A DNA stretch of 64,000 bases. Source: Candidatus Sulfomarinibacteraceae bacterium (GTDB lineage Bacteria; Acidobacteriota; Thermoanaerobaculia; Thermoanaerobaculales; Sulfomarinibacteraceae). The stretch's first letter is position 1, and every line of letters begins with the position of its first letter. The stretch is taken from contig CAVUHO010000003.1 of assembly GCA_963741385.1 (NCBI GenBank), forward strand, positions 435,935-499,934. Reading direction: 5' to 3'. Of the stretch, positions 4,962-64,000 are shown in pieces. The translations under genes were made by a program, and so were the position numbers. The notes below the pieces were generated by a model. The model worked only from the letters and a program-made list of their open reading frames with translations, was not told where the DNA came from and did not search any database.

Positions 4962-7409
<2,448 letters not shown>

Positions 7410-7472: not shown

Positions 7473-8306
7473 ATGATGAGCCAGGGCTTCGAAATCGTTG
7501 AAGGCATCCGGATCGGCGGCGGCGCCAGACCGGTCTATCTCGCAGGGCCGTGCGTCGTCGAGTCGCGGGACTTCGTCGTCGATGTCGCGGGCAGGGTCGC
7601 GGAGATCGCCGCCCGCCGCGGCGTGCCGCTCGTTTTCAAGGCCTCCTACGACAAGGCCAACCGCTCGTCCGAGTCGGGCTTTCGCGGATGCGGGGTTGAC
7701 GAGGGTCTCGAAGCGCTGGCCCAGGTCAAGAGGGTCACCGGTCTGCCGGTGATCACCGACGTCCACCACCCCGAGCAGGCGGCAGTGGCGGCGGCGGTAG
7801 TCGACATGCTCCAGGTGCCGGCCTTTCTGAGCCGTCAGACCGACCTCCTGCACGCGTGCGGCGCCACAGGTCTTCCGGTCAACGTCAAGAAGGGCCAGTT
7901 CCTGGCCCCCGAGGACATGGCCAACGTGGTCGAGAAGGTGCAGGCCGCGGGCAACAGCCGGGTGGTTGTGACCGAACGCGGGACGACCTTCGGCTACCAC
8001 AACCTGGTGGTGGACATGCGGGGCCTGCCCATCATGCGGCGGTTCGCCCCGGTCGTTTTTGACTGCACCCATTCGTTGCAGCTGCCCGGCGGGCTCGGCC
8101 ACGCCACCGGCGGGGCGCGCGAGTTCCACCCCTACCTGGCGCGGGCGGCGGCCGCTGCGGGCGCCGATGGATTCTTTATCGAGGTCCACCCCGATCCCCC
8201 CAACGCCCTGTCGGATGCCGCCACTCAGCTCTCGATCGACGAGTTCGACAAGTTGATCGGTCAGCTCGAGGCGGTGTCGGCGGTCGTGCGGGAGGTCGCA
8301 CCGTGA
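7473..8306 (+). CDS. kdsA: 3-deoxy-8-phosphooctulonate synthase (KDO-8-P synthase)
   Basis: FEIVEGIRIGGG..PVYLAGPCVVES...FKASYDKANRSS...DVHH...FLSRQTDLL...NVKKGQF is the KdsA pattern. Start reset to ATG 7473, because the track ORF begins inside pyrG. Confidence 0.93.
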   Translation: MMSQGFEIVEGIRIGGGARPVYLAGPCVVESRDFVVDVAGRVAEIAARRGVPLVFKASYDKANRSSESGFRGCGVDEGLEALAQVKRVTGLPVITDVHHPEQAAVAAAVVDMLQVPAFLSRQTDLLHACGATGLPVNVKKGQFLAPEDMANVVEKVQAAGNSRVVVTERGTTFGYHNLVVDMRGLPIMRRFAPVVFDCTHSLQLPGGLGHATGGAREFHPYLARAAAAAGADGFFIEVHPDPPNALSDAATQLSIDEFDKLIGQLEAVSAVVREVAP

Positions 8307-9259
8307 GCCGCGAGGTGGCGCTTCAGGTGCTGGAGGCCGAGGCCAACGCGATCCGCCATCTGATGGAGAACCTCGGCGAGGACTTCGATCGCGCGGTGGA
8401 GCTGATCGACGGCTGCGGCGGCCGCGTGGTGCTGACCGGGATGGGGAAGTCGGGCATCATCTGCCGCAAGATCGCCGCGACCATGCGGTCGACCGGGACA
8501 CCGGCCATCTTCATGCACCCGGCCGAGGCCATCCACGGCGATCTGGGAATGGTCGCAGGTGGAGATCTCGTGGTCGCCATCTCGAACTCCGGCACCACCG
8601 ACGAGATCCTCAACCTCGTGGCGGTGCTGCGACGGATAGGGGTCGTTCTGATTGCCATCACCTCGAACCCGGACTCGCCGCTGGCCACCACAGCCGATCT
8701 CCACCTCGACGTGGGTGTACGGCGCGAAGCCTGTCCCATGAACCTGGCGCCGACGGCCTCGACTACCGCCGCCCTCGCCCTCGGTGACGCCCTGGCGATG
8801 TCGGTGTCGGTCAAGAAGGGATTCAAGGAGGAGGATTTCGCGCGTCTCCACCCGGGTGGCAAGTTGGGCAAGAAATTCCTCAGGGTGCGCGACCTGATGC
8901 ACACCGGCGACGAGGTCCCGCGGGTCGAGACCGGAACGGTGATGAAGGACGTCATCTACGAGATGAGCCGCAAGGGGCTCGGCTTGACCACCGTCCAGAA
9001 CCAGGAGGGCCTGCTTCTCGGACTGGTCACCGATGGCGATTTGCGGCGGCTCATGGAACGGGACCCGGACCCCATGGCGCGGACCGCCGGTGAGGTCATG
9101 CACCACGGCGGCGCCTGCATTCCGCCGGACGAACTCGCGACCGCGGCGCTGCGCCTCCTGGAGGAAAAACGCATCACGTCACTCATGGTGAGCAACCAGG
9201 GGGAGCCGGTGCTCGGCGTGCTCCACCTCCACGATCTGTGGGGAGTAGGATTATTTTGA
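8303..9259 (+). CDS. kdsD: arabinose-5-phosphate isomerase (KpsF/GutQ family; SIS plus tandem CBS)
   Basis: SIS motif VVLTGMGKSGIICRKIAATMRSTGTPA, with tandem CBS domains at the C-terminus. GTG start overlaps the kdsA stop (GTGA). Confidence 0.9.
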   Translation: MSREVALQVLEAEANAIRHLMENLGEDFDRAVELIDGCGGRVVLTGMGKSGIICRKIAATMRSTGTPAIFMHPAEAIHGDLGMVAGGDLVVAISNSGTTDEILNLVAVLRRIGVVLIAITSNPDSPLATTADLHLDVGVRREACPMNLAPTASTTAALALGDALAMSVSVKKGFKEEDFARLHPGGKLGKKFLRVRDLMHTGDEVPRVETGTVMKDVIYEMSRKGLGLTTVQNQEGLLLGLVTDGDLRRLMERDPDPMARTAGEVMHHGGACIPPDELATAALRLLEEKRITSLMVSNQGEPVLGVLHLHDLWGVGLF

Positions 9260-9374
9260 TTTCGGATTTCGGATTTCGGATTTCGGATTTCCCGACCGCC
9301 CTCCCACCACTTCTGAACATCGGGCGGGTGGGGGACAAATCCGAAATCCGAAATCCGAAATCCGAAATTCCGAC
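9258..9374. repeat. composite element copy 1: (GATTTCG)x4 - 45-nt GC-rich core - (AAATCCG)x4, arms mutually complementary
   Basis: Read directly from the sequence. The first unit overlaps the kdsD stop codon. Core: CCCGACCGCCCTCCCACCACTTCTGAACATCGGGCGGGTGGGGGAC. Confidence 0.9.
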
Positions 9375-9386
9375 CCGGAAGGTCCG

Positions 9387-9890
9387 ATGCGCCTGACCAT
9401 ACTGACCACCGGCGGCACGATCGACAAGACCTATGATGAGCTGCAGGGCAGCCTGCGCAACGTCAACTCGATTCTCGACGTGATCCTCGACGAGCTGCGC
9501 ACGCCGGACCTTTTCATCCGGCACGTCGACGTGATGCACAAGGATTCGCTCGACATGACCGAAGAGGACCGGCAGATCATCGCCAAAGCGGTTCGAGACG
9601 CCGTCAAGAACTCCGACGCGGTGATCATTCTCCACGGCACCGACACGCTCGAGGAGACCGGTGACCTCCTGTGCAGCGAGATCGGCGACCTCGAGGTTCC
9701 GGTGATTCTCACCGGCGCCATGCGGCCGTACGAGTTTCGCGACACCGACGCCGTGCAGAATGTCACCGAGGCCCTTCTGGCGGCGCGGTTGCTCGAGGGC
9801 GGGGTCTACGTCGTGATGCACAATCGGGTGCTGCGCTTCCCGGGCGTTACCAAGGACCGGCAAGCGCTGACGTTCGTGCAGAAGGACTGA
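9387..9890 (+). CDS. single-domain L-asparaginase-like protein (N-terminal catalytic domain only)
   Basis: 167 aa with asparaginase signatures TTGGTIDK, HGTDTLEET and LTGAMRP. GGAAGG RBS. No C-terminal asparaginase domain. Confidence 0.75.
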   Translation: MRLTILTTGGTIDKTYDELQGSLRNVNSILDVILDELRTPDLFIRHVDVMHKDSLDMTEEDRQIIAKAVRDAVKNSDAVIILHGTDTLEETGDLLCSEIGDLEVPVILTGAMRPYEFRDTDAVQNVTEALLAARLLEGGVYVVMHNRVLRFPGVTKDRQALTFVQKD

Positions 9891-9895
9891 CCGGG

Positions 9896-10010
9896 TCGGA
9901 ATTTCGGATTTCGGATTTCGGATTTCGGATTTGTCCCCCACCCGCCCGACGTTCAGAAGTGGTGGGAGGGCGGTCGGGAAATCCGAAATCCAAAATTCGA
10001 AATCCGAAAT
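9896..10010. repeat. composite element copy 2: reverse complement of copy 1 with only a few mismatches
   Basis: GTCGGAATTTCGGATTTCGG...GTCCCCCACCCGCCCGACGTTCAGAAGTGGTGGGAGGGCGGTCGGG...AAATCCGAAAT. Aligns base-for-base to the reverse complement of 9258-9374 except for about 5 positions. Confidence 0.9.
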
Positions 10011-10667: not shown

Positions 10668-10720
10668 GGTGGGGGGTTGGGTGGAAAAATCCGAAATCCG
10701 AAATCCGAAATCCGAAATTC
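10668..10720. repeat. solo half-element: G-rich core remnant plus (AAATCCG)x4 arm
   Basis: GTCGGTGGGGGGTTGGGTGGAAAAATCCGAAATCCGAAATCCGAAATCCGAAATTC. There is no left arm. It abuts the helicase stop codon (10724). Confidence 0.85.
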
Positions 10721-10723
10721 TCC

Positions 10724-13339
10724 CTACGTCCCAATCCGCGTCACCGTCACCAACGGCCCATCCACCCTGGCGTTGTCCGAGAGATCGACCTTGCCCTCGA
10801 TGCACCACAGGTTGTCGTCGGCGGGGTCGAGCAGGACCTGCACGACCTGCCAGGCGTGGTCGCCGACTTCGGTGATCTGGGTGTGCTCCGCGAGGCGGGC
10901 GTTGTGGTCGAACCGGAGCTCGTCGTAGGCGGCGAAGAACGGCTCCAACGCCCGCGAGAAATCATCCTCGGTGACCAACGCCGCCGGTGTATCGGGGTCG
11001 TTCCGTACCGAGTCGGCGGCCTCTTCCCAATCGCGCCGCGCCAGCGCCGCCACCAGTTGGTGGAGGTCAGCGCGCAGCCGCGACGCGAGGGCCCCGGGAT
11101 TCGAGCGCAGTTCGCGCACCGCCAACAGCCTCTGCGCGACCCTCCGTTCGTCGGGCGTCTCGAGCAGGAGCTCGGGGTGCCGCATGGACTCCCACTCGTC
11201 GATCAGACTGGTGTCGACCCGCTCGAGCATGGCGCGGAAAAATGCGATCACGTCACGTACGCCTGCGGTCTTGATCTGGTCCGGGAGGTTCTGGTCGAGG
11301 GTCTTGTAGACCTGTGAAAGATAGCGCAGGAGGACGCCTTCGGATCGTTGGAGTCCGTAGCGCCGGACGTAGTCGGTAAAGCCCAGGTAGTCCTCGTACA
11401 TCTCCCGCGCAACCGACTTGGGTTGGACGACATCGCCGCCGACCCACGGGTGATCACGGAGGAAGTGATCGAAGGCAGCGTGGATGTAGTCGGCGAGGGG
11501 CTGTGGGTGGGTCACCTCGTCGAGCCGGTTCATTCGTTCGTCGTACGAAACACCCTCGGCTTTGAGCCGGTTGATGAGGTCGGTCTTCAGGCGGTCCACC
11601 TGCCGTCTGAGGACGATCACCGGGTCCTCGAGCACCGACTCCACCAGACTCAACAGGTCGAGGGCGTGCTCCGGGTTTTCGGGATCGAGACCCTCGGTCG
11701 CCTGAATGAGAAAGAGCGACAGGTTGTGAAACAGCGAGAAATCGACCTGCAGATCCTCGTCGACCACCACCCACAGATAGTGGCCGGCGGTGTCGGGCAC
11801 CATGCGAATGATGCCGGCGCGGTAGAGCGACCGCGCCAGCTGAGCTGCGCGCTCGAGATGCGACTTCTTGCCCGCATCGTCATCGTGGCAGTTGGCGATG
11901 AGCTGGCGAACGGAGTGGAAATTCCCGGCGGCGGGGTCGTTGGCAGCCGCGTCGCGCTGCAGCAGATCGACCAGCATGCCGGGGGTGATGCGGAACCGGG
12001 AGACCAACTTTTCGGGCGGGTCGACGATGAGCTTTTTGAACGTCTCCTCGGACCACGAGATCTCGCCCGGGCGAGGCGCCGTTTTCCCGGTCTTGCGCTT
12101 TTTGTTCGGGTTGGCCGCCGCCTTGCGTTGTTCCTTGAGACGTTCGATCACCTCTTCGGGGGCCTGACACACCACGCTGCCCTGGTCGTCGAAACCCTTG
12201 CGCCCGGCGCGGCCCGCGATCTGTTTGAACTCGCGCACCTTGAGCCGTGCCACCTTGCGGCCGTCAAACTTGGCGAGCTTGGTGAACAGCACGGTCCGCA
12301 GCGGGATGTTGATGCCGACCCCGAGGGTGTCGGTTCCCGAGATCACCTTGAGCAGACCGGCCTGGGCCAGTTGCTCCACCTGAAGGCGGTACTTCGGCAA
12401 CAGGCCGGCGTGGTGGACGCCGATGCCGAAACCGAGGAAGCGCTTGAACTCCTTGCCGTACGGGGTGTCGAAACGGGTGTTGCCGACGGCCTCGCGGATG
12501 GCGGTCTTCTCTTCTTTGGTCGTCAGCTGCATGCTGGTCAGTTTCTGGGCGGTTTCGGCGCAGTCACGCTGCGTGAAGTTGACCAGGTAGATGGGCGCCT
12601 TGGACTCGCCCGCGAGTTCTTCGATGGTCTCGTGGAGCGGCGTCTCCCGGTACGAGAAATCGAGCGGCACCGGCCGGTCGGAGGATTGAACGAGTGCCGA
12701 TGTGCGGTCGCTCCGTTCCTCAAGCTGTTCCATGATCGAGGTCATGTCGCCGAGGGTTGCCGACATCAGGAGGAACTGGGTGCGCGGCAGGGTGATCAGC
12801 GGCACCTGCCACGCCCACCCGCGGTCGCGGTCGGCGTAGTAGTGGAACTCGTCCATGATCACGTACGGTGCCTCGAGGTCCGGGCCCAGCCGCAGAGAGA
12901 GGTTCGCCAGGACCTCGGCGGTACAGCAGATCACCGAAGCCTCCGGGTTGATGCTGGCGTCGCCGGTGAGCATGCCCACGTTGTCGGCGCCGAGCTCGGC
13001 GCACAGTGCGAAGAACTTCTCGCTCGCCAGGGCCTTGATCGGCGTCGTGTAGTAGCTGCGCCGGCCCTCGCACAGGCCGCGGAACTGCAACCCGAGCGCT
13101 ACCAGCGACTTACCGGATCCTGTCGGGGTGTCGAGCACGACGTGGCGGTCGGCCATGAGCTCGAGCAGCGCCTCTTCCTGCGCCGGGTAGAGCTCGAAAC
13201 CGGTGTCCGCGACCCAGCCGAGAAAGAGATCGAGGATGGTGTCCGGATCGTGCGTTCCGCCTTGAGGGATGCGCGATCCGAGCGAGGCGATCGTGGACGC
13301 AGCGCCGTCGCCGTCGGTCGTGATCGTTTCGTCGGACAT
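10724..13339 (-). CDS. DEAD/DEAH-box (Ski2-like) helicase with large C-terminal DUF3516-type region
   Basis: 871 aa. Walker A DTPTGSGKS, DEFH box, SAT motif, and the helicase C motif HHAGLLP..QIAGRAGRKG. Confidence 0.9.
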   Translation of the reverse strand: MSDETITTDGDGAASTIASLGSRIPQGGTHDPDTILDLFLGWVADTGFELYPAQEEALLELMADRHVVLDTPTGSGKSLVALGLQFRGLCEGRRSYYTTPIKALASEKFFALCAELGADNVGMLTGDASINPEASVICCTAEVLANLSLRLGPDLEAPYVIMDEFHYYADRDRGWAWQVPLITLPRTQFLLMSATLGDMTSIMEQLEERSDRTSALVQSSDRPVPLDFSYRETPLHETIEELAGESKAPIYLVNFTQRDCAETAQKLTSMQLTTKEEKTAIREAVGNTRFDTPYGKEFKRFLGFGIGVHHAGLLPKYRLQVEQLAQAGLLKVISGTDTLGVGINIPLRTVLFTKLAKFDGRKVARLKVREFKQIAGRAGRKGFDDQGSVVCQAPEEVIERLKEQRKAAANPNKKRKTGKTAPRPGEISWSEETFKKLIVDPPEKLVSRFRITPGMLVDLLQRDAAANDPAAGNFHSVRQLIANCHDDDAGKKSHLERAAQLARSLYRAGIIRMVPDTAGHYLWVVVDEDLQVDFSLFHNLSLFLIQATEGLDPENPEHALDLLSLVESVLEDPVIVLRRQVDRLKTDLINRLKAEGVSYDERMNRLDEVTHPQPLADYIHAAFDHFLRDHPWVGGDVVQPKSVAREMYEDYLGFTDYVRRYGLQRSEGVLLRYLSQVYKTLDQNLPDQIKTAGVRDVIAFFRAMLERVDTSLIDEWESMRHPELLLETPDERRVAQRLLAVRELRSNPGALASRLRADLHQLVAALARRDWEEAADSVRNDPDTPAALVTEDDFSRALEPFFAAYDELRFDHNARLAEHTQITEVGDHAWQVVQVLLDPADDNLWCIEGKVDLSDNARVDGPLVTVTRIGT

Positions 13340-17015: not shown

Positions 17016-19277
17016 ATGGCGGCAACGGAAATCGAGACAATGAAAAATCTGTCGGGTCGCACCCTCGGCCACTACCGCATCGTCGAGCAAATCGGCGCCG
17101 GCGGAATGGGTGTGGTTTACCGCGCGCATGACGAGAGGCTGGATCGGGATGTGGCGATCAAGGCGCTGCCGGAGGGGGTGGCCGGTGACCCAGATCGATT
17201 GAGCCGCTTTGAACGCGAAGCCCGGGCGGTGGCTCAGCTCGACCATCCGAATATTCTCGCCATTCACGACTTCGGGTCGGAGGACGGCACGGTCTACGCG
17301 GTCATGGAGCTCTTGGACGGGGAGTCGCTGCGCCAGGTGATCGCGAAGGGCGGCCTCACCAGCGGCAAGGCAGTGGAGTATGCACGGGCGATCGTCGACG
17401 GTCTCGCTGCGGCGCACGACAAAGGGATCATCCACCGGGACCTCAAACCGGAGAATGTTTTCCTGACCCGCGACGGCCGCATCAAGATTCTCGACTTCGG
17501 GCTGGCTCGAATCAAACAGATGGTTGACCACGAGGCCGAAACGGTCACATTCTCCCCAGAGGGGACGGCCGTGGGCACCGTCCTGGGCACCGTCGGGTAC
17601 ATGTCCCCCGAGCAGGCCGAGGGTCGGCCCGTCGATGCCCTCAGCGATCTCTTCAGTCTTGGCGTGGTGTTGTACGAGATGCTGACCGGCCGGCGTCCGT
17701 TCATGGGGGACACGGCCGCGGCCACACTGGCCGCACTGTTGCGTGACGACCCACCGCCAATGACGGGTGTCGATCCGAAGCTCGCGCGGCTGGTCGAACG
17801 GAGTCTGCGAAAGAACGCCTCCGAACGATTCCAGTCGGCCGCCGATCTGAGGTCGGCCATCGACGACTGCGTGGCTCCATCCGGCGACCGCGAGTCCGCC
17901 TCGATCGCGGTGCTGCCGTTCCACAACATGTCCGGCGCCGCGGAGGACGAGTATCTCTGTGAGGGGTTGACCGAAGAGATCATCAACGTGTTGACGCGGA
18001 TCCCCGGTCTGCGCGTCATCGCCCGCACCTCCGTTTTCGCGGTGGGCCGCATGGGCCTCGACGTGCGCGAAATCGGGGCGAGGCTGGACGTGGGCACGAT
18101 CCTCGAAGGCAGCGTGCGGCGTTCGGGACAACGGGTGCGGATCACGGCTCAGCTCGTCTCTTCGGGCGATGGCGGGCACCTATGGAGCGAGCGCTTCGAC
18201 CGCGAGCTGACCGACGTGTTCGCGCTCGAGGACGAGATCGCCGAGGCGATCGCTGAGCGACTGCGGGTCGGACTCAATCGTGAGGACGGGGCGTCACGGC
18301 GCCCCGCTGTCGACGCCGAGGCGCACAACGCTTTTCTCGAGGGCCGGTACCACCTCGCCCGGGGAACCCCGCAGGCCCTGGCGCAGGCGATGGCGTGTTT
18401 CGAGCGCGCAATTGCCCGCGACCCGGGCTTCGCGCTGGCCTTTGACTCGCTCGCCGAGGTGTACTGGTACCTCGGTTTCTTTGGTGGTCTACTTCCAAGG
18501 GACGCTTTCTCGCAGGGCACCTGGCACGCCCTGCGCGCTCTGGAACTCGACGACACTCTGGCCGAAACGCACGCGCTGTTGGCAATGCTTCGCAAGGAGC
18601 TCGACTACAACTGGGCGGAGGTCGATCACGAACTTCGCCGCGCCCGCGAGCTCAACCGGGAGTCGCCGATTGTGCGCTTGCGCTACGCCATCAGCGGCCT
18701 CCTGCCCCACGGGCGTATCGACGCGGGTGTGGAGGAAATCGAGGGCGTCCTGCAGAGCGATCCCCTGTCGATTGTCGTGCGCTGGTGGTTGGCCATCATG
18801 TTGTATCTGGCTCGCCGCCCGGACCGCATGATCGACGAGGGACACCGCATGATCGCGCTCGACCCGAACCATTTCCTGGGCCACTGGGTCGTCGGTGTGG
18901 CGTGCAGCGAACGCGATCGCGCCCGACGACGCGGTGGCAGCGCTTCGAGCGGGCGCACGAGCTGTCGGGTGGGATCCCCTTCACCCTCGGGTTCCTGGCC
19001 TACGGGCTGGGGCGGGCGGGGCGGACGGACGACGCGGGCAGGCTGCTGGCTCAAGCAGAGGCTATGGCGAAGGACGGTTACCTGTCCCCGTTCGCCATCG
19101 CCATCAGCCACGCTGGTCTTGGCGACTGGGATGCAGGCCTTCGAGTGGTGGAACCGGGCGATCGATGTCCGTGATCCACTAATCGTGCCGATCAAGAACC
19201 TCCCCATCTTCGATCCAGTGCGGAACGACCCCCGCTATCCCCCGATGTTGCGCCGCATGAACCTCGCGGAGGACTGA
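17016..19277 (+). CDS. Ser/Thr protein kinase with juxtamembrane-like module and C-terminal TPR region (possible frame disruptions at 18.92-19.14 kb)
   Basis: IGAGGMGVVYRA, HRDLKPENV, DFGLAR, GTVGYMSPEQ. Followed by IAVLPFHNMSG...EGLTEEIINVLTRIPGLRVIARTS and TPR-like repeats. Confidence 0.85.
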   Translation: MAATEIETMKNLSGRTLGHYRIVEQIGAGGMGVVYRAHDERLDRDVAIKALPEGVAGDPDRLSRFEREARAVAQLDHPNILAIHDFGSEDGTVYAVMELLDGESLRQVIAKGGLTSGKAVEYARAIVDGLAAAHDKGIIHRDLKPENVFLTRDGRIKILDFGLARIKQMVDHEAETVTFSPEGTAVGTVLGTVGYMSPEQAEGRPVDALSDLFSLGVVLYEMLTGRRPFMGDTAAATLAALLRDDPPPMTGVDPKLARLVERSLRKNASERFQSAADLRSAIDDCVAPSGDRESASIAVLPFHNMSGAAEDEYLCEGLTEEIINVLTRIPGLRVIARTSVFAVGRMGLDVREIGARLDVGTILEGSVRRSGQRVRITAQLVSSGDGGHLWSERFDRELTDVFALEDEIAEAIAERLRVGLNREDGASRRPAVDAEAHNAFLEGRYHLARGTPQALAQAMACFERAIARDPGFALAFDSLAEVYWYLGFFGGLLPRDAFSQGTWHALRALELDDTLAETHALLAMLRKELDYNWAEVDHELRRARELNRESPIVRLRYAISGLLPHGRIDAGVEEIEGVLQSDPLSIVVRWWLAIMLYLARRPDRMIDEGHRMIALDPNHFLGHWVVGVACSERDRARRRGGSASSGRTSCRVGSPSPSGSWPTGWGGRGGRTTRAGCWLKQRLWRRTVTCPRSPSPSATLVLATGMQAFEWWNRAIDVRDPLIVPIKNLPIFDPVRNDPRYPPMLRRMNLAED

Positions 19278-19363
19278 TGATGATCGGCACCACCCTCGGC
19301 CATAACCGCATCCAGGCGCTGCTCGAGGAGTGCGATGCGCCGTTCAAACGTGAAACGTTCTAG
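19277..19363 (+). pseudogene. second kinase 5' stub (28 codons), start overlapping the kinase stop
   Basis: MMIGTTLGHNRIQALLEE... The DNA ACCCTCGGCCATAACCGCATC compares with the kinase ACCCTCGGCCACTACCGCATC. The stub is cut off by the AACGTT array. Confidence 0.35.
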
Positions 19364-19376
19364 CGTTTGAACGTTG
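19341..19376. repeat. AACGTT-type ~8-nt array containing a 9-bp inverted repeat GTTCAAACG/CGTTTGAAC
   Basis: CGTTCAAACGTGAAACGTTCTAGCGTTTGAACGTTG. Same unit family as 7410-7449. Confidence 0.75.
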
Positions 19377-19491
19377 CCCACCCACCCGGCAGGCGGGACG
19401 CCTGCCCCACAAAGGCCCCGGCGCTACATTTCTGAATATGCGATCGGTCTCAAGCCCCAGGCCTTTTTCGTGTTCGGCATGGCCGGACATG

Positions 19492-21480: not shown

Positions 21481-21599
21481 TTCGGAATTCGGAATTCGGA
21501 ATTCGGAATTTTTCCACCTGCTCTGAACGGGTGGATGTTGAAGCAGGTTGGATGCTTCCATAATTCAAAATTAAGAATTCAAAACTCAAAATTGAAAAA
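21481..21599. repeat. composite element: (TTCGGAA)x4 - core with CCACC..CTGAAC..GGTGG hairpin - (AATTCAA/AATTAAG/AACTCAA/AATTGAA) array
   Basis: Read directly from the sequence. The core TTCCACCTGCTCTGAACGGGTGGATG resembles the core of element 9258-9374. Confidence 0.85.
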
Positions 21600-30482: not shown

Positions 30483-32287
30483 TGAGGCGGCTGGTTCTTC
30501 TCGGGATGGTCCTGGCGATGGCGATCGCGCCCGTCGTCGGAGCGAATCTTCTCAATACCTGGCAAGAGGTCCAGGAGAGTCTTGCCGCCGGAGACGTCGA
30601 CGCCGCTGAAAGGTCGATTCAAATCCTGCAGGACCAGGCTACGGAACTCGAGGTGTGGCGCATGCCCGCCTTCGCTGCGGCGCTCGTGTTCTGGGCCGAG
30701 TCCAATCCGGGGGCTCCTGGCGAAGCGATGGTGCGGGCCGCCCGTCAGCTGGATCCGGATTGCCCGTCCAGCTACTTTCTGGAGGCACGCTGGCATCGCG
30801 GGCGCGGAGCGACCATGGACGCGATCAAGTCGTACGCCGCCGGCTGGAAGGCCCTTTTTCTCTTCGAGCCGACGAGGCGTGTTGTGACGGCGATGTTCAT
30901 TTTGTGGACGACGTTTTCCGTGACGATCACGTTTCTGATCATGATGGTGGCGGTGACGTTGCGGCACCTGCGGGGAATGGCCCACGATGCGCGGGAACTC
31001 GGGGGAGTGCTTTTCCGGCCCGCCAACGCCTGGGTTTTCACCTTTGTGGTGTTGCTGCTACCGCTGTTTGCAGGCCTCGGTCCTCTGTGGTTGTTGGTCT
31101 ACCTGTTTTGTTCGAGTTGGATCTATCTGGGCATCCGGCTGCGGGTTTGGGCGGTGATCGCCTGTCTCACGTTGATCTTCCTGGTCCCGGTTCTGTCGTG
31201 GGTGCAGAATCGGCTGTTGCAGACGCCGACCCTGGCGGACCGGGTTTCGGTCATGCTGGACGAACGCGCGATCGACTACTCGACGCTGCGCGACGTCGTC
31301 GATCTCGAGCCGACTCTCGCCGAGATCTACTCGTACCACGTGATTCTCGGCGAACTTTTTCGCATGCACGGTGAGCCGGGCCTGGCCAAGATCCAGTTCC
31401 AGAAAGCCAGCGCTGCCGATCCCCGAGATGTGCGGGCATTGGTCATCGTCGCCAATCTCGCGCTCGAGGACGGCGACGCTCAGCGCGCTGTGCAACTTCT
31501 CAACTCGGCCCTGGAAATCGATGCCCAAAACGCCTACGTGTACCACAATCTTTCGTTGGCTCTCGACCTCAATCGGCGTTTCGAGGAGGGGGACGTGGCG
31601 CGGAACCGCGCTCGAGAATTCAAAGGCAGCAGCAGCGCGGAAAACGGGCTGAGGGGCCTTGACCCGAGAATTCGCTTTCCTCGTCTTGGCTCTGTCGACG
31701 TTGCACAGCTCGCGACCGTTCTCGACGTCCAGGAGGGCCCCGCCGGAGCAGAGGAACCACCGCCGATGCATCAGCCGCAACACCTGCTCGCGCCGTTGTC
31801 GTTGATTTTTGCGATAGGCATCGTGTTCGGGGCCGGCATGCTCGTCGTCCGCCACAGGTCGTTTGAGGCCGGCAAAGAGTGCTCCAAATGCGGAAAGGTG
31901 TACCGCCTCGAGACGGGATTCGGCGAGAGCTCGGTAATCTGTCCGCAGTGTGTTTCGGTCTTTCACAAACGTGATGTGGTTTCCATCGAACAGCAGACCA
32001 CCAAACTGCGAAGCATTCGAAGCTGGGAGCGCTTGACCATGCTGGGCCGGCGCCTGGGCGGTCTGCTGTTTCCGGGGAGCCCCTACTATCTCAGCGATCG
32101 GCTTTTTCGCGGCGTCCTCTTTTCGTTCGTGACCTGGTTCCTTCTCACAGGCGCTTTGGTTTGGATACCGCGCTTTCTGCCGATGATCGAACCCCTTGCG
32201 GACTTCAAGCAGATACAGATCGGGATGACCGTGCTCGCCGGGTTGATGGTGTTGCGCTCCGCCACCATGGCGTGGGACGGGAGGTGA
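30479..32287 (+). CDS. multi-pass membrane protein with TPR repeats and an internal CxxC...CxxC zinc ribbon
   Basis: Signal/TM at the N-terminus and about 5 central TM helices. TPR-like AEIYSYHVILGELFRMHGEPGLAKIQFQKASAADP.., and the zinc ribbon CSKCGKVYRL...ICPQCVSVF. The start GTGATG overlaps the upstream stop. Confidence 0.6.
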   Translation: MMRRLVLLGMVLAMAIAPVVGANLLNTWQEVQESLAAGDVDAAERSIQILQDQATELEVWRMPAFAAALVFWAESNPGAPGEAMVRAARQLDPDCPSSYFLEARWHRGRGATMDAIKSYAAGWKALFLFEPTRRVVTAMFILWTTFSVTITFLIMMVAVTLRHLRGMAHDARELGGVLFRPANAWVFTFVVLLLPLFAGLGPLWLLVYLFCSSWIYLGIRLRVWAVIACLTLIFLVPVLSWVQNRLLQTPTLADRVSVMLDERAIDYSTLRDVVDLEPTLAEIYSYHVILGELFRMHGEPGLAKIQFQKASAADPRDVRALVIVANLALEDGDAQRAVQLLNSALEIDAQNAYVYHNLSLALDLNRRFEEGDVARNRAREFKGSSSAENGLRGLDPRIRFPRLGSVDVAQLATVLDVQEGPAGAEEPPPMHQPQHLLAPLSLIFAIGIVFGAGMLVVRHRSFEAGKECSKCGKVYRLETGFGESSVICPQCVSVFHKRDVVSIEQQTTKLRSIRSWERLTMLGRRLGGLLFPGSPYYLSDRLFRGVLFSFVTWFLLTGALVWIPRFLPMIEPLADFKQIQIGMTVLAGLMVLRSATMAWDGR

Positions 32288-53220: not shown

Positions 53221-54690
53221 ATGAGCCGAGAAATTCCGGTCGGTCTGACCTTTGACGATGTTCTCCTGGTGCCGTGGCGTTCGGAGGTCCACCCGAACGA
53301 GCTCGATGTCAGCACGAGGCTGACCCGCGACGGGATTCGCCTGGGCCTGCCGATCGTGTCGGCGGCGATGGACACCGTGACCGAGGCCAACATGGCGATT
53401 GCCATGGCGCAGTTCGGCGGGGTCGGCGTGATCCACAAGAACATGAGCATCGAACGGCAGGCCGAGGAGGTGGACAAGGTCAAACGGTCGGAATCGGGCA
53501 TGATCGTCGATCCGGTCACCGTCCACCCGGAACAGTCCGTGCGCGAGGCTCTCGACGTCATGGCCAGGTACCGGATCTCCGGTCTGCCAGTGGTCGACGC
53601 TCAGGGCCAGCTCGAGGGCATCCTGACCAACCGCGACCTGAGGTTTTGCAGCGAATTCGACCGGCCGATCGCGGACTTCATGACCAAGGAAGAGCTGGTG
53701 ACGGCGCCGGTCGGGACGACGCTCGAAGAGGCCAAGTCGCTGCTGCACAAGAACCGTATCGAGAAGCTCCTGATCGTCGACGAGGCCGGCAACCTCAAGG
53801 GTCTGATCACGGTCAAGGACATCAAGAAGGCCCACGACTACCCTCACGCGTGCAAGGACGATCTGGGCAGGTTGCGGGTCGCGGCCGGCGTCGGTGTGAC
53901 CGGAGACGTTCTTGATCGCTGCGCGGCTCTGATCGCCAACCAGGTCGATGTCCTGTGTCTCGACAGCTCGCACGCTCACTCTCGCGGAGTGATGGAAGCC
54001 ACCGGGCGGATCAAGAAGGCCTTTCCGGAGACGCCCCTGATCGTCGGCAACATCGCCACCGAACAGGCGGCCCGCGACCTCATCGCCCTCGGCGCGGATG
54101 CGCTCAAGGTGGGGATCGGGCCCGGATCGATCTGTACGACCAGGATCGTGACCGGTGCCGGAATGCCGCAGATCACCGCGGTCATCGACTGCGCCCGTGC
54201 GGCTAAAGACGCCGGCGTGCCCATCATAGCCGACGGCGGCATCCGCTTTTCCGGCGACATCACCAAGGCGCTGGCTGCGGGCGCGGACGTGATCATGATC
54301 GGCTCGTTGTTTGCCGGGGTGGAGGAATCGCCCGGTGAGCAGATCCTGTACCAGGGCCGGACATTCAAGGCCTACCGCGGCATGGGTTCGATCGGCGCCA
54401 TGAAGAGCAGCGAGGGCTCGAGCGACCGCTACTTCCAGGAGGGGGGCGAGCGTGCCAAACTCGTGCCGGAAGGGATCGAGGGCATGGTCCCCTTCAAGGG
54501 TCCGCTGTCGGACCAGCTGACCCAGCTCGTCGGCGGGCTCCGCGCGGGAATGGGGCTAGCGGGTTGCGCCTCCATCTCGGAGCTCCACGAGCATGCACGT
54601 TTCATTCGCGTCACCGGAGCGGGCCTCAAGGAATCGCACGCCCACGACGTCGTCGTCACCAAGGAAGCGCCAAACTACAGGATCGACTGA
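53221..54690 (+). CDS. guaB: IMP dehydrogenase
   Basis: [10 protein letters not shown], tandem CBS domains, the catalytic loop [11 protein letters not shown], and GGIRFSGD. Confidence 0.98.
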
Positions 54691-54814
54691 GAATTCTCAA
54701 TTATGAATTCTTAATTTTGAATTCCCGCCCGCCCACCCCCAAGGTGCGGATCGCTGCGAAAGGGTGCCGGAATTGAGAATTCATAATTCAAAATTGGAGG
54801 GGCGTGAGCCCCTC
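54691..54814. repeat. composite element: AATT-type heptamer arms (imperfectly complementary) around a C-rich core, followed by GAGGGGC-gtga-GCCCCTC hairpin
   Basis: Left arm GAATTCT CAATTAT GAATTCT TAATTTT GAATTCC. Core CGCCCGCCCACCCCCAAGGTGCGG.... Right arm GGAATTGAG AATTCAT AATTCAA AATTGG. Hairpin at 54797-54814. Confidence 0.85.
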
Positions 54815-59493: not shown

Positions 59494-59522
59494 ACGCCCG
59501 GGCTTCGGCCCGGGCGTTTTTG
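59494..59522 (+). terminator. intrinsic terminator after the OmpA-family gene
   Basis: ACGCCCGGGC-ttcg-GCCCGGGCGT (10-bp perfect stem) followed by TTTTT. Confidence 0.85.
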
Positions 59523-59657
59523 CGTTCGTTTGACCAACCAGGTGTCAGGTGTCACCCGAGACGGAACAAAATCATGGGTTGTGAGGCTCGACCGACGTTG
59601 TGAGCCTGTGCTACGTTGCATCGTGCGCCGAAGACGAAGACACCGGATGGAGGCCTG

Positions 59658-61802
59658 ATGGAACACTCGAAGCCTGTGAGCTCGAAGCTGCTACCGGCAA
59701 ACGCCTACCGAAAATTGAACCCCGGCGAGGTTTATCACCCGGTCGTTGGTCCGGACGATCTTCGACCCGAAGTTACCATGTGGTCGATCGGCGTCGGGGT
59801 GGCGATGGTCGTCGTTTTCACGGCTGCAGCGTCCTACATGGCGCTGCGAGCCGGCAACGCCATCGAAGCTTCGATCCCGATCGCGATCCTCGCGATTTTC
59901 TTCGGCAAGCTCAGGGTGCCCTCGAGCACCATCCTCGAAAACGTCATGGTCCAGAGTGTCGGCCAGGCTTCCGGGGTCGTAGCCGCGGGTGCGACCTTCG
60001 TGGTGCCGGCCCTCTACATCAACCAGCTCGACATCCAGTGGTGGCAGATCTTTCTGGCCTGCTTCATCGGCGGGTCGCTGGGTGTGGTCCTGATCATTCC
60101 GTTGCGCAGATACTTCGTGCAGGAACTCCACGGCGAGCTGCCCTACCCGGAGGCGACCGCCATCAACAACATCCTGATTACGGGCGAAAGTTCGGCCGGC
60201 GGCGCTGGCAAGATCCTGCTGATCTCGTTCGTGCTCGGAGCGCTGTTCGACTTTTCGATCGAAGCCCTCCACCTGTGGAACGCCAATCTGTCGAGTTCGA
60301 CACTGCTCGGGGGTGTCGGCAACGGGATTCGGCTCGAGATCCAGCTGACCGCCATCGCAGCCCTCTTCGGCCTCGGTTACATCATCGGCATCCGCTACGC
60401 GTCGATCATCGCGGCAGGGTCGGTCCTGGCGATGGTGGTCATGGTGCCGCTGATCTATCTCTTCGGCCGCCACCTCGCCGAGTTCTCGTTTGCCGGGAAG
60501 AGCTTCGAGATCGCGGAGATGAGTGCGGTTGCAATATTCGGGGCGTTCGTGAAACCGATCGGGATCGGGGCGATTGCGGTTTCAGGAATCATCGGCATCT
60601 TGCGGATGTGGAAGATCGTCGCCTCGTCGGTGACGCTGGGTTTCAAGGGGTTCTCGAAGGAGATGCACACAAACGTCGACACCACCGAACGGACGCAACG
60701 GGACATCCCTCCGAGAAACGTCTTGTTGATAACCCTCGCGGCCACCCTCGGCATGGGGGCTCTCTTCTTCATCGTCGCGATGATCACCCCGGGGGCAGGC
60801 GGTGCGGCCGCCTATGGTTTCGTCGACAGCGTCAAGTTCGGCCTGGTCGGAATGGTCGTCGGTTTCTTCCTCTCCTTTCTGTTCACTCCGGTTGCGGCCC
60901 AGGCGATCGCGATCGTTGGAGTCAACCCGGTGTCCGGCATGACCCTCATCACGGTGGTATTGGCGATCGGCTGCATGATCCTGGTGGGTCTCGCCGGTAC
61001 GGCCGGGATGATCGTGGCCCTCATCATCGGCATTGCCGTGTGCACCGCGTTGTCGACGTCCGGGGCGCTGATCACCGACTTCAAGATCGGCTACTGGCTC
61101 GGCAGCACCCCTCGCAACCAGGAAAAATGGAAGTTTCTCGGCATGTTCGTCGCGGCTCTGGTGGTCGCAGCGGTGATCCCGATCATGGACAACGCGTATG
61201 GCTTCCTCATCACCGACCCTGAGACCGGTCTCATGGTGTCGAACGAGCAGGCCCTCCCGGCCCCCCAGGCGAACATGATCGCAGCGGTGTCGCGTGGACT
61301 GATGGACAACCCCGCCAACCAACCGTGGCTGCTCTACGGTCTCGGTGGTGCGGTCGCGGTGATGTTGTGGATGGCCGGGGTCCCGATGCTCGCCTTCGCG
61401 CTCGGCATGTATTTGCCGATTTCGATCAATATGGCTGTTCTCGCGGGGGCCGCAGTCGGGTGGATTGTGGGTCGCACCGGCGGCAGTGAGGAGGTCCGCC
61501 AGGCGCGGACCGAACAGGGGACGCTGATCGCCTCCGGACTCATGGCGGGCGCCGCCATCTTCGGCGTGATCACCGCGATCCTCAGAACCCCGGATGTCGG
61601 CGCGCCGATCCGGTATATGAGTATCGGTGTGGATTTCGCGCTTCAGGACGGGGTGCTCCGAGAGACCGCCGCACACTGGTACGAGGGGTTTCAGGGTCAG
61701 ATCATCGGGCTCGTCATGCTCGTGCTTCTGGGCATCGCCTGCTATTTCCTGGCCCGCCTCGGCGCCCGCTGGCTGCTCGAAGCCCAACAGCGCGAGGAGT
61801 AG
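59658..61802 (+). CDS. OPT-family oligopeptide transporter
   Basis: 714 aa with about 16 TM helices. Segments LTAIAALFGLGYIIG and DFKIGYWLGSTPR fit the OPT family. ATG 59658 follows GGAGG. Confidence 0.88.
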   Translation: MEHSKPVSSKLLPANAYRKLNPGEVYHPVVGPDDLRPEVTMWSIGVGVAMVVVFTAAASYMALRAGNAIEASIPIAILAIFFGKLRVPSSTILENVMVQSVGQASGVVAAGATFVVPALYINQLDIQWWQIFLACFIGGSLGVVLIIPLRRYFVQELHGELPYPEATAINNILITGESSAGGAGKILLISFVLGALFDFSIEALHLWNANLSSSTLLGGVGNGIRLEIQLTAIAALFGLGYIIGIRYASIIAAGSVLAMVVMVPLIYLFGRHLAEFSFAGKSFEIAEMSAVAIFGAFVKPIGIGAIAVSGIIGILRMWKIVASSVTLGFKGFSKEMHTNVDTTERTQRDIPPRNVLLITLAATLGMGALFFIVAMITPGAGGAAAYGFVDSVKFGLVGMVVGFFLSFLFTPVAAQAIAIVGVNPVSGMTLITVVLAIGCMILVGLAGTAGMIVALIIGIAVCTALSTSGALITDFKIGYWLGSTPRNQEKWKFLGMFVAALVVAAVIPIMDNAYGFLITDPETGLMVSNEQALPAPQANMIAAVSRGLMDNPANQPWLLYGLGGAVAVMLWMAGVPMLAFALGMYLPISINMAVLAGAAVGWIVGRTGGSEEVRQARTEQGTLIASGLMAGAAIFGVITAILRTPDVGAPIRYMSIGVDFALQDGVLRETAAHWYEGFQGQIIGLVMLVLLGIACYFLARLGARWLLEAQQREE

Positions 61803-61807
61803 AAAGC

Positions 61808-62144
61808 CAAGGTTTACAGGTTCCAGGTTGCAGGATCCAGGTCGCCGGTTTCAGCTCTGAAGGTGGGCCAAGGCCCACCACCCTCAAGCTGTCATCCCGA
61901 CCGAGGGAGCGAAGCGATCGAGTGGAGGGATCCCTCCGCTGCGGCCCTCCGGGCCTCCGGTCGGGATGACAGGAATTGCGACTGCCTTCGGAATGAAAAC
62001 GACCCGAGAGAATTACCTCTTCCGAGTCGTTCCTGTGGTGCAGGCGTCCCGCCTGCACGTGCGGCCGGGACGGCCGCACCAAAATGCTCCCGTGTATCAG
62101 CGGCTACCCAAGCCCCAAGCCCCTCAAGCCTCAAGCCCCAAGCC
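61808..62144. repeat. 340-bp compound repeat region: CAGGTTN heptamer array, several GC hairpins, an 84-bp element with 15-bp terminal inverted repeats, and a CAAGCCC-type heptamer array
   Basis: Left array 61808-61846. Hairpin GGTGGGCC-aa-GGCCCACC at 61862-79. Inverted repeat CTGTCATCCCGACCG (61889-903) / CGGTCGGGATGACAG (61958-72). Tandem hairpins at 62038-58 and 62059-79. Right array 62107-62144. Confidence 0.85.
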
Positions 62145-62146
62145 TT

Positions 62147-62851
62147 TCAGTCGAGCGTGATCACCGCGTCGCCGACTCCGACTGACACTTCGATGTGGAA
62201 GGCGCCGTCACCCTCCCAGGTGGCGGAGTGGCCGATAAATCCGCCACTCGAGATCTTCGTGCCGCGGACCGTGAGGCTAGCGTCTCCCACCCCGCCGGCC
62301 CCTTCGGCAGAGGCGTAGACCGACGCGGGGGCCCGCACCACGGCGGTGCCGACGCCGAGGTCGATCGAGATGTCCCCCCCGCCGGCCTCGACCCGGATCT
62401 CTCCGACGCCCGAGTTGATCTCGACGCCGGAGTCGGCGCCCCGAATATCGATATCGCCCACTCCGTGGTTCAGCTTGACTGCGACCGTGGCGGGTATCGT
62501 GATGCTCCAGTTCTCCTCGAACCGGCGGTCGTCGTCCGCCTTGGGCTTGATGGTGAGCTCGAGACGGTCGCGTTTGATTTCCGCGCTCAAAGAGGCGGCC
62601 TCAACCTCCTGCTCGGCCCTTCGTTTGGATGAGAAGATGCCTCCGCGGCGGGGGGTGAGGACGACCTCCACGATGATTTCCTCGGCGCCCGGTACGGCGT
62701 GGATCTCGACGTCGCCGACGCCGCTGTCGAGGACCAGCCCGCTGATCGAACCCACGGTCACCGAGCGGGTCAACGTGCGGGTATCGGCGGCATCCGCGGT
62801 GGCGAGGCCTGCCGAGATCAGCAGTAGGAAGAGAATTGGGCACCTTTTCAT
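62147..62851 (-). CDS. DUF4097-like beta-strand-repeat (putative adhesin) protein, secreted
   Basis: Signal peptide MKRCPILFLLLISAGLATADA. Repeated GVGD(I/V)xI motifs (GVGDVEIHA, GVGDIDIRG, GVGEIRVEA, GVGTAVVRA). Confidence 0.65.
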   Translation of the reverse strand: MKRCPILFLLLISAGLATADAADTRTLTRSVTVGSISGLVLDSGVGDVEIHAVPGAEEIIVEVVLTPRRGGIFSSKRRAEQEVEAASLSAEIKRDRLELTIKPKADDDRRFEENWSITIPATVAVKLNHGVGDIDIRGADSGVEINSGVGEIRVEAGGGDISIDLGVGTAVVRAPASVYASAEGAGGVGDASLTVRGTKISSGGFIGHSATWEGDGAFHIEVSVGVGDAVITLD

Positions 62852-62924: not shown

Positions 62925-63884
62925 TCACTTCCGAATATCGGAAATGCTGAGCACGATCTCGGCCGAGGCCGTTTCGACGTCGAAGGTCGGCCCGTCGCCG
63001 GACAGGCGGAGGGTGCTGCCATCGCCGGCAACCTCACCCGGGAGCTCGCTGGTGATGCTGCCGGTGGTGGTGGTCAACGTGCCCTGAGGGTTCACCCCTT
63101 GCGGGACAGCGAGCTGGACGCGGCCCGAGGACGACCGGATCCTGATCGTGGAATCCTTACCGAGGCGGTCCCACGTGATGGAGATCTTGCCGGTCGACGT
63201 GCTCACGTCGATCGAGCCGGAGAGATTCTCCAACCAGATTTTTCCGGAGGCCGTGCTGACCTTCGCCTCCTGGGCCCCACCCACCAGCCGCACGTCGCCG
63301 GACGAGGTGCTTGCGGTGAAGGCTTCCAACGGCCGGATGACCTCGATGTTGATGTCCCCGTCGGCGCCATCGATACGCAGGGATGCGGCCGCACCCGTCA
63401 TCGTCATATCTCCCGCCATCGATCGCAGCCGGAGAGGGCGCGCGTCGGGGAAGTCCCCACGCACCTGGAGACTCCCCTTGGTGGTGGTGAGGTCCGGAAT
63501 GACGCCCCCGGGAACCAGCAGATCGAGCCGCGCGCGAGCCGACAGGCTGCCGAACCAGAGAAAGCCCGATTTGGCGGGGTTGACGGTGACGTGGAGCACG
63601 TCCTCTGCGTCGTCAAACGACGGCGTGTGATCGTCGATCCAGCCCTGGCCCTTCTCATCGCCGGTGCCGCTGATGTGGAGTTGAACCTGCGCCTCGATCT
63701 GGCTCAAGTCGGCAGTCCGCAGCGTGACGTCGAGGTCTGCGGCGTCGACCACCAGGGTCTTGCCCTCCACGAACGGAAAACGTTCGGTGACGTCGAGGTC
63801 CTTTTGCGCAGTCGATCCGAAGGCCGCCCAGGAAACGGTGAGGACGGCGGGCAGGAGGGTCTTCAGCAGCGATCTCGAGAGCAT
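62925..63884 (-). CDS. DUF4097 family beta-strand-repeat protein, secreted
   Basis: MLSRSLLKTLLPAVLTVSWAAFG is signal-like. Repeated units SGDV/GKI/GRV (TSSGDVRLVG, TASGKIWLEN, TSTGKISITW, SSSGRVQLAV, TTTGSITSEL). Start reset to 63884 after AAGGGAG. Confidence 0.7.
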   Translation of the reverse strand: MLSRSLLKTLLPAVLTVSWAAFGSTAQKDLDVTERFPFVEGKTLVVDAADLDVTLRTADLSQIEAQVQLHISGTGDEKGQGWIDDHTPSFDDAEDVLHVTVNPAKSGFLWFGSLSARARLDLLVPGGVIPDLTTTKGSLQVRGDFPDARPLRLRSMAGDMTMTGAAASLRIDGADGDINIEVIRPLEAFTASTSSGDVRLVGGAQEAKVSTASGKIWLENLSGSIDVSTSTGKISITWDRLGKDSTIRIRSSSGRVQLAVPQGVNPQGTLTTTTGSITSELPGEVAGDGSTLRLSGDGPTFDVETASAEIVLSISDIRK

Positions 63885-64000
63885 GATCGGGCTCCCTTCA
63901 TGGGGTTGGAAACTGCAGGATGTCGGCGGGCCGCACTTTTCGCCTCGGAAGTCGGGGCCCTGCGTCGAGGCGCGGGTTGGCGTTTGCGGCAAACGCGCGC

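Follow-up and report, generated by a model that had tools for sequence, protein, structure and literature searches.

A probable mosaic of REP-like palindromes within a heptamer microsatellite at a convergent gene junction of a Sulfomarinibacteraceae bacterium

The report on CGTC-tagged repetitive extragenic palindromic (REP) sequences (Di Nocera et al. 2013, PMC3733652) describes elements with a tag of CGTC, TGTC or CCTC, a stem of 8-9 bp opening with an A-T and then a T-A pair, a loop of 4-5 nt and a 3-nt tail with the consensus CCA; these elements form mostly tags-outward (head-to-head, HH) dimers without a transposase and include dRS3 of Neisseria and some RPEs of Rickettsia. Chenal et al. 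(2025, PMC11893778) describe SsnA, a single-domain GIY-YIG nuclease of 94 amino acids that binds and cuts the dRS3-containing NTS sequence CGTCATTCCCGCGMAVGCGGGAATCYRG only as single-stranded DNA (ssDNA); the bases critical for SsnA are GTC before the palindrome and C after it, and each ssn gene has its cognate repeats as flanks. They also give a degenerate search pattern, the Ssn-related motif (SRM). Here we compare with these systems a 344-bp repeat island found at positions 61803-62146 of a 64,000-nucleotide stretch (the window) of contig CAVUHO010000003.1 from a Candidatus Sulfomarinibacteraceae bacterium. The island lies between two convergent genes, for an OPT oligopeptide transporter and for a protein of 234 amino acids (the 234-aa protein), and is part of the 3' regions of both. 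It is probably a mosaic of REP-class palindromes, resembling bacterial interspersed mosaic elements (BIMEs), inside a heptamer microsatellite that has been split in two.

The two ends of the island are heptamer arrays, array A next to the OPT gene and array B next to the 234-aa gene (Table 1). TRF reported array A as CAGGTTC at 61817-61842 (period 7, 3.7 copies), and a scan for 7-nt periodicity placed it at 61809-61842 with roughly 5-6 degenerate units; it starts about 6 nt past the OPT stop codon. Array B was reported as CCCAAGC at 62107-62144 (5.1 copies) and, as a preliminary description made from the sequence alone had noted, ends 2 nt before the adjoining stop codon (62144 versus 62147). 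The components listed in that description, namely the two arrays, a hairpin, an 84-bp inverted repeat and two back-to-back hairpins, are all present in that order and at those positions. The arrays have the properties of heptanucleotide simple-sequence repeats, consisting of 7-nt units head to tail and turning over between relatives.

Comparison was made with loci of relatives that encode homologues of the 234-aa protein at 44-88% identity; a metagenome scan with this protein gave 10 loci. In L152 (88% identity, same convergent OPT neighbour), the stop-to-stop spacer is 61 nt long, consists of heptamers only and reads GAGGCTT GGGGCCT GAATCCT GACTCCT GAACCTC .... The spacer of L128 (76% identity, same OPT neighbour) is a single in-phase heptamer run of about 80-88 nt, with about 11 units grading from GGCTTGR to NNCCTGA, and in L123 (87% identity) both unit types abut directly, despite a different downstream neighbour gene. 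These unbroken spacers measure 61-88 nt, and the window has about 261 extra bases (61846-62106). With the extra bases removed, its spacer is colinear with that of L152 at 59 of 75 aligned positions, which bears out the nested insertion between the arrays proposed earlier. On the minus strand the arrays of the window read GGCTTGR and NNCCTGR, in the same orientation and order as in the relatives. Therefore, we conclude that the outer arrays are the two halves of one direct, in-phase microsatellite.

The array-B unit type is also found 3' of the orthologous stop codon in L122, L123, L124, L127, L128 and L152. In-phase arrays that differ in length and unit occupy the orthologous spacer of nine relatives (L152, L128, L123, L124, L127, L130, L131, L132 and L136), and in distant relatives the heptamer arrays at this position are of unrelated units (AGATACA, AATTCTC, TAGATGT/CTCACGT). 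A GTAG-tagged REP pair, GGGCGGGGATAAACCCCGCC(C)CTAC ... GTAGGGGAGGGGTTTATCCCCTCCC, was found in the same spacer of L124 (5722-5815), L127 and L125 (5845-5965); the spacer has thus gained palindromes more than once. This fits a recurrent landing site. Heptamer spacers may be specifically preferred targets, or may simply be permissive convergent spacers of the kind that REPs reportedly favour (PMC3733652).

In L125 the spacer is rearranged: at 6065-6110, array sequence like that of L126 comes after what remains of the OPT 3' end, and an OPT gene lies in reverse orientation. The L122 contig and one relative's short-read (Logan) contig end 10 and 31 nt past the 234-aa gene, within the GGCTTGG array, which suggests that the arrays, being repeated or length-variable, break assemblies.

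The preliminary description assigned the outer arrays to the array-core-array logic of smaller elements in the window. On that reading the island would be a single composite module with the GGTGGGCC hairpin as its core, into which the other repeats were nested because such modules attract insertions. The window does hold several array-core-array modules with a GGTGGG/CCCACC box in their cores, the segment TTCAGCTCTGAAGGTGGGCC adjoins array A, the outer arrays pair weakly with each other on RNA folding, and a different REP pair stands in the same spacer of relatives. However, the two arrays of the island are direct and not inverted, and in L128, L123 and L152 they form one continuous, in-phase array that has no core; the single-module reading fails on this orientation and on these array-only relatives. 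The likeness to other cores is confined to the G-rich box, with a mean column identity of 38% in alignment A2, coreless arrays exist, and unit sequences vary between modules. We regard a single module as unlikely.

Among the smaller modules themselves, one of the form (GATTTCG)5-core-(CGAAATC)5 occurs twice in opposite orientation (9258-9373 and 9896-10010), with cores differing at 1 nt, and the two copies bracket a small gene (about 9388-9890) in the manner of a composite element. Segment 61838-61892 of the island was tried as a homologue of the smaller-module cores and rejected, the GGTGGG box alone being common. Elsewhere in the window, too, heptamer arrays start on a stop codon or a few nucleotides away from one (9258, 10687-10718 and 54691-54795). 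The array at 9258 shares bases with the TGA of the open reading frame (ORF) 8303..9259; that at 54691 begins 1 nt past the TGA that closes 53221..54690, and its partner extends into the GGAGG/GTG of the ORF from 54804; and the end of the array at 10687-10718 is 5 nt away from the stop codon of 10724..13339 (minus strand).

The 84-bp element of the interior has perfect 15-nt termini, CTGTCATCCCGACCG and CGGTCGGGATGACAG, which are the sole matches without mismatch in the window, and two arms of 42 nt each that are 74% complementary around the 14-nt palindrome GGAGGGATCCCTCC. A search of one genome per species (596 Gb) with the pattern TGTCATCCCGA-N40-70-TCGGGATGACA matched at least 120 loci, compared with an estimated chance expectation of about 2 for 22 fixed bases. 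The 123 copies, 223 arms and the dimers counted here are those of the matches listed, and the pattern retrieves tags-outward dimers by design. An interior of the form TGTCATCCCGAGCGnAGCGAGGGATCT - variable spacer - AGATCCCTCGCTnCGCTCGGGATGACA is common to every listed match. The matches are labelled as coming from at least 10 phyla, of soil and sediment bacteria, the record labels being Acidobacteriota, Gemmatimonadota, Bacteroidota, Alpha- and Gammaproteobacteria, Planctomycetia, Verrucomicrobiae, Kiritimatiellia, Chloroflexota, Chlorobiaceae, Solirubrobacterales and Pseudobdellovibrionaceae; isolate genomes among them are of Spirosoma, Reyranella, Vineibacter, Luteimonas and Pseudoxanthomonas. 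We found no paper in the bacterial literature that contains the terminal 11-13-mers.

The repeating entity in these genomes is a 26-nt hairpin unit, TGTCATCCC-GA-GCGNAGC-GA-GGGATC (the TGTC unit), 143 of the 223 arms being 26 nt long. It is made up of a YTGTC head, an ATCCC/GGGAT stem, tandem G.A/A.G pairs, a GCGNAGC mini-hairpin and a C directly after the stem; GCGNAGC is known as an extraordinarily stable DNA mini-hairpin (PMC13037366, PMC3201870). Of the 143 arms of this length, 140-142 keep the tandem G.A/A.G, 124 have the GNA loop, and 141 have the C directly behind the stem; the bases after this C are T or C and then any base. The canonical stem, ATCCCGAG/CGAGGGAT, begins AT/TA and has six Watson-Crick pairs besides the conserved tandem G.A/A.G, and the stem variants ATCCT/AGGAC and ATCGC/GCGAT are compensatory. 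Where a dimer has canonical arms on both sides, the loop base is identical in the two arms in 27 of 39 cases. The ends of dimer spacers are complementary, with a mean of 2.76 consecutive pairs versus 0.36 in shuffles. Further copies in the matched loci are mostly dimers. Dimers occur in both arrangements, and whole units are also found singly, as inward-facing pairs and in tandem runs.

The window copy is a divergent member of this family, in which it is placed by its exact termini and by alignment A1, where the variant of L022 (Planctomycetia) is closest to it. Its left unit (about 61889-61932, with GCGAAGC) and right unit (about 61929-61972) have no spacer between them, and both loops are expanded, with about 17 extra bases per unit. 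The head, ATCCC-GA, the internal GA-GCGAAGC-GA, GA-GGGAT-C and the central GGGATCCC are retained. A candidate second copy at 32220 of the window was rejected, the near-match being ordinary coding sequence.

The 84-bp element had been called MITE-like at first, that is, like the miniature inverted-repeat transposable elements. A classical MITE would be a deletion derivative of an insertion sequence (IS), moved by a DDE transposase acting on the 15-bp terminal inverted repeats; the perfect repeats starting TG...CA, the typical size and the many copies in other genomes agree with such an origin. The check for target-site duplications at other copies that had been proposed was run on the 123 listed copies and gave none at k = 1-9, the counts being equal to those of shuffled-partner controls (7 versus 7.4 expected at k = 2, and 0 at k of 4 or more). 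The window copy, flanked by ..CTCAAG and GAATTG.., likewise has none, and position -1 is a pyrimidine in 103 of the 123 copies. The conserved part is the self-folding unit, which occurs in the other arrangements given above. Clustering of 2304 ORFs within 1.5 kb of the listed copies, a limited sample, gave generic families only (SDR, ABC/MacB, histidine kinase, acyl-CoA dehydrogenase, permease and others) with no transposase family enriched, and there were no matches among IMG/VR viral contigs (terminal pattern) or PLSDB plasmids (two blastn queries). The MITE class fails on the target-site duplication test and we consider it very improbable; singletons, dimers and tandems are the behaviour of a REP.

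In other phyla the termini of the TGTC element (11-20 nt) are tandemly amplified beside the full element (L031 3035-3240, L051 1-70, L084 6716-6790 and L040 6208-6294), with periods of 17, 18, 21 and 28-30 nt; L031 has up to about 14 copies. Here, too, an array adjoins a hairpin core, but in another form.

The other palindromes of the interior recur as well. The GGTGGGCC hairpin with its CTGAA flank (segment CTGAAGGTGGGCCAAGGCCCACC) matches L126 8267-8289 at 22 of 23 positions. The L126 copy sits within a GTAGGGTGGGC...GCCCACCCTAC palindrome, that is, GTAG...CTAC, the context of a GTAG-tagged REP; the window unit ends in ACCC without GTAG/CTAC, and alignment A2 groups the two. The twin hairpins (62038-62058 and 62059-62079), each with a 9-bp stem and a 3-nt loop, follow the pattern TGGTGC-NNNNN-TCC-NNNNN-GCAC. 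Between their units, TGGTGC-AGGCG-TCC-CGCCT-GCAC and TGGTGC-GGCCG-TCC-CGGCC-GCAC, only four stem positions vary, in each case with compensation (AGGCG/CGCCT versus GGCCG/CGGCC), and the inverted repeat that they form (I3) is 83% complementary. A unit related to the GCAGGCG-TCC-CGCCTGC hairpin with its TGTGG flank, TGTGGGGCAGGCGTCCCGCCTGC, was found at 19389-19411 in another convergent spacer of the window (22 of 23 positions). The motifs written for the three palindromes are YTGTCATCCCGA, TGTGG-KGCAGGCG-TCC-CGCCTGC and TTCAGNTCTGAAGGTGGGCC. The interior thus stacks palindromes from three families or more in a BIME-like arrangement. The recurrence of sub-elements on which the preliminary description had staked its reading was thus found, at 120 or more loci of other genomes for the 84-bp family and in a relative or the window for the other palindromes.

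The spacer containing the related unit is itself a smaller mosaic (window 19279-19470), with short repeats of the AACGTTC type, the GCAGGCG hairpin copy and a CAAGCCCCAGGCC remnant. An ORF of 28 codons for amino acids begins 2 nt past the stop of 17016..19277, ahead of these repeats.

Perfect hairpins with a stem of at least 8 bp are few in the 64-kb window, about 17 distinct ones, and 3 of them lie within the 344-bp island. On DNA folding, the 84-bp element gave z = -4.4 on one strand and -5.8 on the other, and the twin hairpins gave z = -6.1 and -5.2, with 0 of 200 shuffles as good in either case; the heptamer arrays are unstructured (z = +1.75 and -0.1). Such structures might instead have evolved in place as RNA or transcription elements (bidirectional terminators, 3'-end stabilisers or a small RNA) rather than having been inserted as repeats. 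In keeping with this, the island belongs to both 3' regions, its whole RNA fold beats shuffles (plus strand, z = -5.3; minus strand, z = -3.8), one hairpin has TTTTC behind it on the minus strand and may be a weak terminator of the 234-aa gene, and REPs in general are reported 3' of genes with possible action at the RNA level (PMC3733652). However, a consensus scan found no intrinsic terminator in the island, that hairpin included, and canonical terminators are used elsewhere, such as 59494-59517 followed by TTTTT. Rfam gave no match in the whole window at the gathering threshold, only chance-level miRNA and small-RNA matches in the island at E <= 10, and nothing covering the repeats in fifteen loci of the family and relatives. 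Relatives with the same two genes have a hairpin-free spacer, so the hairpins are not required there, and all three palindromes are copied at unrelated loci. The in-place reading fails on these last two points, and we think it improbable. A secondary, exapted role of the hairpins as barriers is possible and compatible with a mosaic of acquired palindromes.

According to the explanation that we favour, a mosaic within a split microsatellite, the spacer is non-coding, evolves quickly and has two layers. The first layer is one in-phase heptanucleotide microsatellite, GGCTTGR grading to NNCCTGR on the minus strand, that fills the stop-to-stop gap in relatives and presumably grows and shrinks by replication slippage. 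The second layer, about 261 bp lodged in that microsatellite, comprises REP-class palindromes of at least three families, which may have arrived by a hairpin-directed process on ssDNA. Candidate enzymes are a GIY-YIG nuclease of Ssn type, by analogy with the described mechanism, or an HUH-type enzyme; the units would be copied or retained through the interaction of enzyme and hairpin, and not by cut-and-paste transposition. As a likely side-effect, the stacked hairpins would serve both convergent transcripts as barriers or insulators at the 3' end.

Several results weigh against this explanation. The window copy is atypical: in either of its units about 28-29 nt separate ATCCC from GGGAT, versus 11 nt in the canonical unit. 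It is the one copy of the TGTC element in the 64-kb window; about 35 kb of syntenic loci (L122-L126) contained none, and blastn-short gave no island-specific match in relatives' loci up to L136. The element may therefore be a rare relic in this lineage and not an active family. The taxonomic breadth given above is mostly that of labels on metagenome-assembled genomes (MAGs), the isolates supporting Bacteroidota and Pseudomonadota only. No precise empty site was found for the 84-bp element alone, and the 261-nt interior, whose borders are without a target-site duplication, could have come as one piece. The SRM motif, HGTCWYN(0-2)YYVSBRHN(0-5)WNVSBRGN(0-2)RNCYNB, was matched neither by the canonical TGTC unit nor by its Bacteroidota variant or the window element; the corresponding regular expression matched its positive controls (NTS and the units of L137 and L142) and had 2 matches in the window, which is chance level. 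Regular expressions and tblastn with an Ssn-like query found no small GIY-YIG or Ssn-like gene in the window and none in family loci totalling 880 kb (about 8 kb per genome), and tblastn with an unvalidated query for the E. coli REP-associated tyrosine transposase (RAYT) found none in the window or the relatives' loci (about 8 kb per genome), both results being uninformative either way. A weak tblastn match to the RAYT query (E = 3.5e-4) lies at 5317-5592 of L004, a Spirosoma MAG, about 5 kb from the TGTC element of that locus.

The Ssn-like GIY-YIG consensus used as a query was validated by its matches, which number at least 7999 GIY-YIG proteins with a length of about 95 amino acids. The three genes of this type that were examined (about 95-103 amino acids, L137-L150) all had CGTC-tagged hairpins on both sides, which reproduces the arrangement of ssn genes for canonical CGTC repeats. 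They come from MAGs of Chloroflexi, Alphaproteobacteria and Longimicrobiaceae, with repeats such as CCGTCATCCCGGC..GCCGGGATCCAG, and CCGTCATCCCGGCGTCCCCAGCCGGGATCCAG in the Chloroflexi MAG. In the alphaproteobacterial loci the CGTC hairpins lie within larger composite repeats of about 190 nt.

A further possibility, to which we give little credence, is that the TGTC unit is the recognition hairpin of an unassigned clade of ssDNA nucleases or recombinases, and that the island records an active process joining hairpins and microsatellites. Such a clade would stand apart from the described Ssn/SRM pairs, since the TGTC unit fails the published motif. If it existed, repeated cutting at hairpins with slipped repair would generate adjoining short tandem arrays, which may take the form of amplified termini (periods of 17-30 nt) in other phyla and of stop-codon-abutting heptamers in this lineage.

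On the mosaic reading, a candidate 'new mobile element' is removed from the window, and a REP-type mosaic in a microsatellite spacer is a known intergenic architecture. The TGTC unit, which resembles the Ssn-cut CGTC/NTS repeats yet escapes the SRM motif, would be missed by surveys based on that motif; as a pan-phylum unit, it is a candidate substrate for a new ssDNA-specific enzyme. The relatives provide the 'before' state, a heptamer-only spacer, and also a different REP pair, which together make the locus a natural case of one site that has gained palindromes repeatedly.

The features of the locus are given in Table 1. The 234-aa protein has 243 homologues, of which one at 59% identity is labelled Acidobacteriota, and gene order is kept in relatives. 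The gene adjoining array B had been labelled DUF4097, which is wrong: at a threshold as loose as E <= 10 it does not match that Pfam family, and DUF4097 belongs to the following gene (62925..63992).

Table 1. Features of the repeat island, its flanking genes and the smaller modules of the window
Feature	Position	Strand	Remarks
OPT oligopeptide transporter gene	59616..61802	+	PF03169, E = 9.7e-83; start codon uncertain; stop 61800-61802
Island (spacer)	61803-62146		Between the OPT stop codon and the stop codon of the 234-aa gene
Heptamer array A, OPT-proximal microsatellite half	61808..61845	-	NNCCTGR units (- strand) = CAGGTTN (+ strand)
Interior block, ~261 nt	61846..62106	.	Contains all hairpin elements; missing from relatives' orthologous spacers
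REP-like unit TTCAGCTCTGAA-GGTGGGCC-AA-GGCCCACC	61850..61879	.	Hairpin proper 61862-61879, perfect 8-bp stem
84-bp element	61889..61972	.	Dimer of TGTC-tagged hairpin units, tags outward (head-to-head)
Imperfect hairpin AACGAC..GTCGTT, then TTTTC on - strand	61998..62031	-	Fold z = -2.3 to -2.8
Twin GTGC hairpins, zero-spacer inverted dimer	62036..62081	.	Second REP-like unit
Heptamer array B, half adjoining the 234-aa gene	62107..62146	-	GGCTTGR (- strand) = CCCAAGC (+ strand); 0-2 nt from stop codon
Gene for 234-aa protein	62147..62851	-	No Pfam family; stop codon (TCA on + strand) 62147-62149
Smaller array-core-array modules of the window	9258-9373, 9896-10010, 21481-21598, 54691-54795		Inverted array pairs

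Heptamer arrays of this kind have counterparts among known heptanucleotide simple-sequence repeats, such as the short tandemly repeated repetitive (STRR) heptamers of cyanobacteria. Heptamers are the commonest class among repeats of 5-11 nt in most genomes surveyed, and the TAACTGA arrays of Beggiatoaceae are heptanucleotide repeats with one fixed unit, mainly upstream of start codons (PMC4679880). The arrays described here share with both the tandem intergenic 7-nt units near gene ends and the quick turnover, but differ in that the unit changes from locus to locus and the whole convergent spacer is filled from stop to stop. With bacterial MITEs such as Correia and Nezha, the 84-bp element shares small size, lack of coding capacity, terminal inverted repeats, multiple copies and intergenic position; in contrast to them it has no target-site duplication, no parent IS was found, and its conserved part is a self-folding unit that extends beyond the termini.

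REPINs and BIMEs, which are built of GTAG-tagged REP doublets, mobilised by RAYTs and clustered in mosaics, resemble the island in arrangement: two inverted units make one long hairpin, the elements lie between convergent genes and lack a target-site duplication, and a single spacer holds a stack of several palindrome families. In addition, the same spacer has a true GTAG pair in L124, L125 and L127, and the copy of the GGTGGGCC unit in L126 carries GTAG/CTAC. However, the 84-bp element and the twin hairpins are without a GTAG/CTAC tag, and REP/RAYT pairs are usually lineage-specific, whereas the TGTC unit is near-identical across phyla.

The TGTC unit is closest in its features to the CGTC-tagged REPs, dRS3 and the SRM repeats. 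Like them, it has an unpaired YGTC head, a stem beginning with an A-T and then a T-A pair, a short hairpin and a C after the stem. The tag is present in the window at 61890-61893 and at 61971-61968 (minus strand), and so is the arrangement of SsnA-critical bases, GTC-ATCCC...GGGAT-C, with the C on both units. The head GTCATCCCG is identical to that of the repeats flanking the GIY-YIG gene in L137-L141, and the TGTC unit has the head GTCAT(C)CCG in common with the CGTC repeats. Also alike are the predominance of tags-outward dimers without an associated transposase, as seen in a limited sample from a search that retrieves such dimers by design, the variable and often self-complementary spacers, the singletons and heterodimers, and the spread over several phyla. 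The TGTC unit differs in that it has tandem G.A/A.G in the stem and a GCGNAGC mini-hairpin instead of a perfect stem of 8-9 bp, a tail of CTN instead of CCA, and no fit to the published SRM motif. The canonical loop (CGNAG) falls within the 4-5 nt of the CGTC REPs; the window copy departs from them by its loops of 28-29 nt and the lack of a spacer, and no ssn gene could be linked to it. The comparison is one with features described in PMC3733652 and PMC11893778; on those features, the TGTC unit would be a sibling family of the CGTC/SRM class and not a demonstrated member of it.

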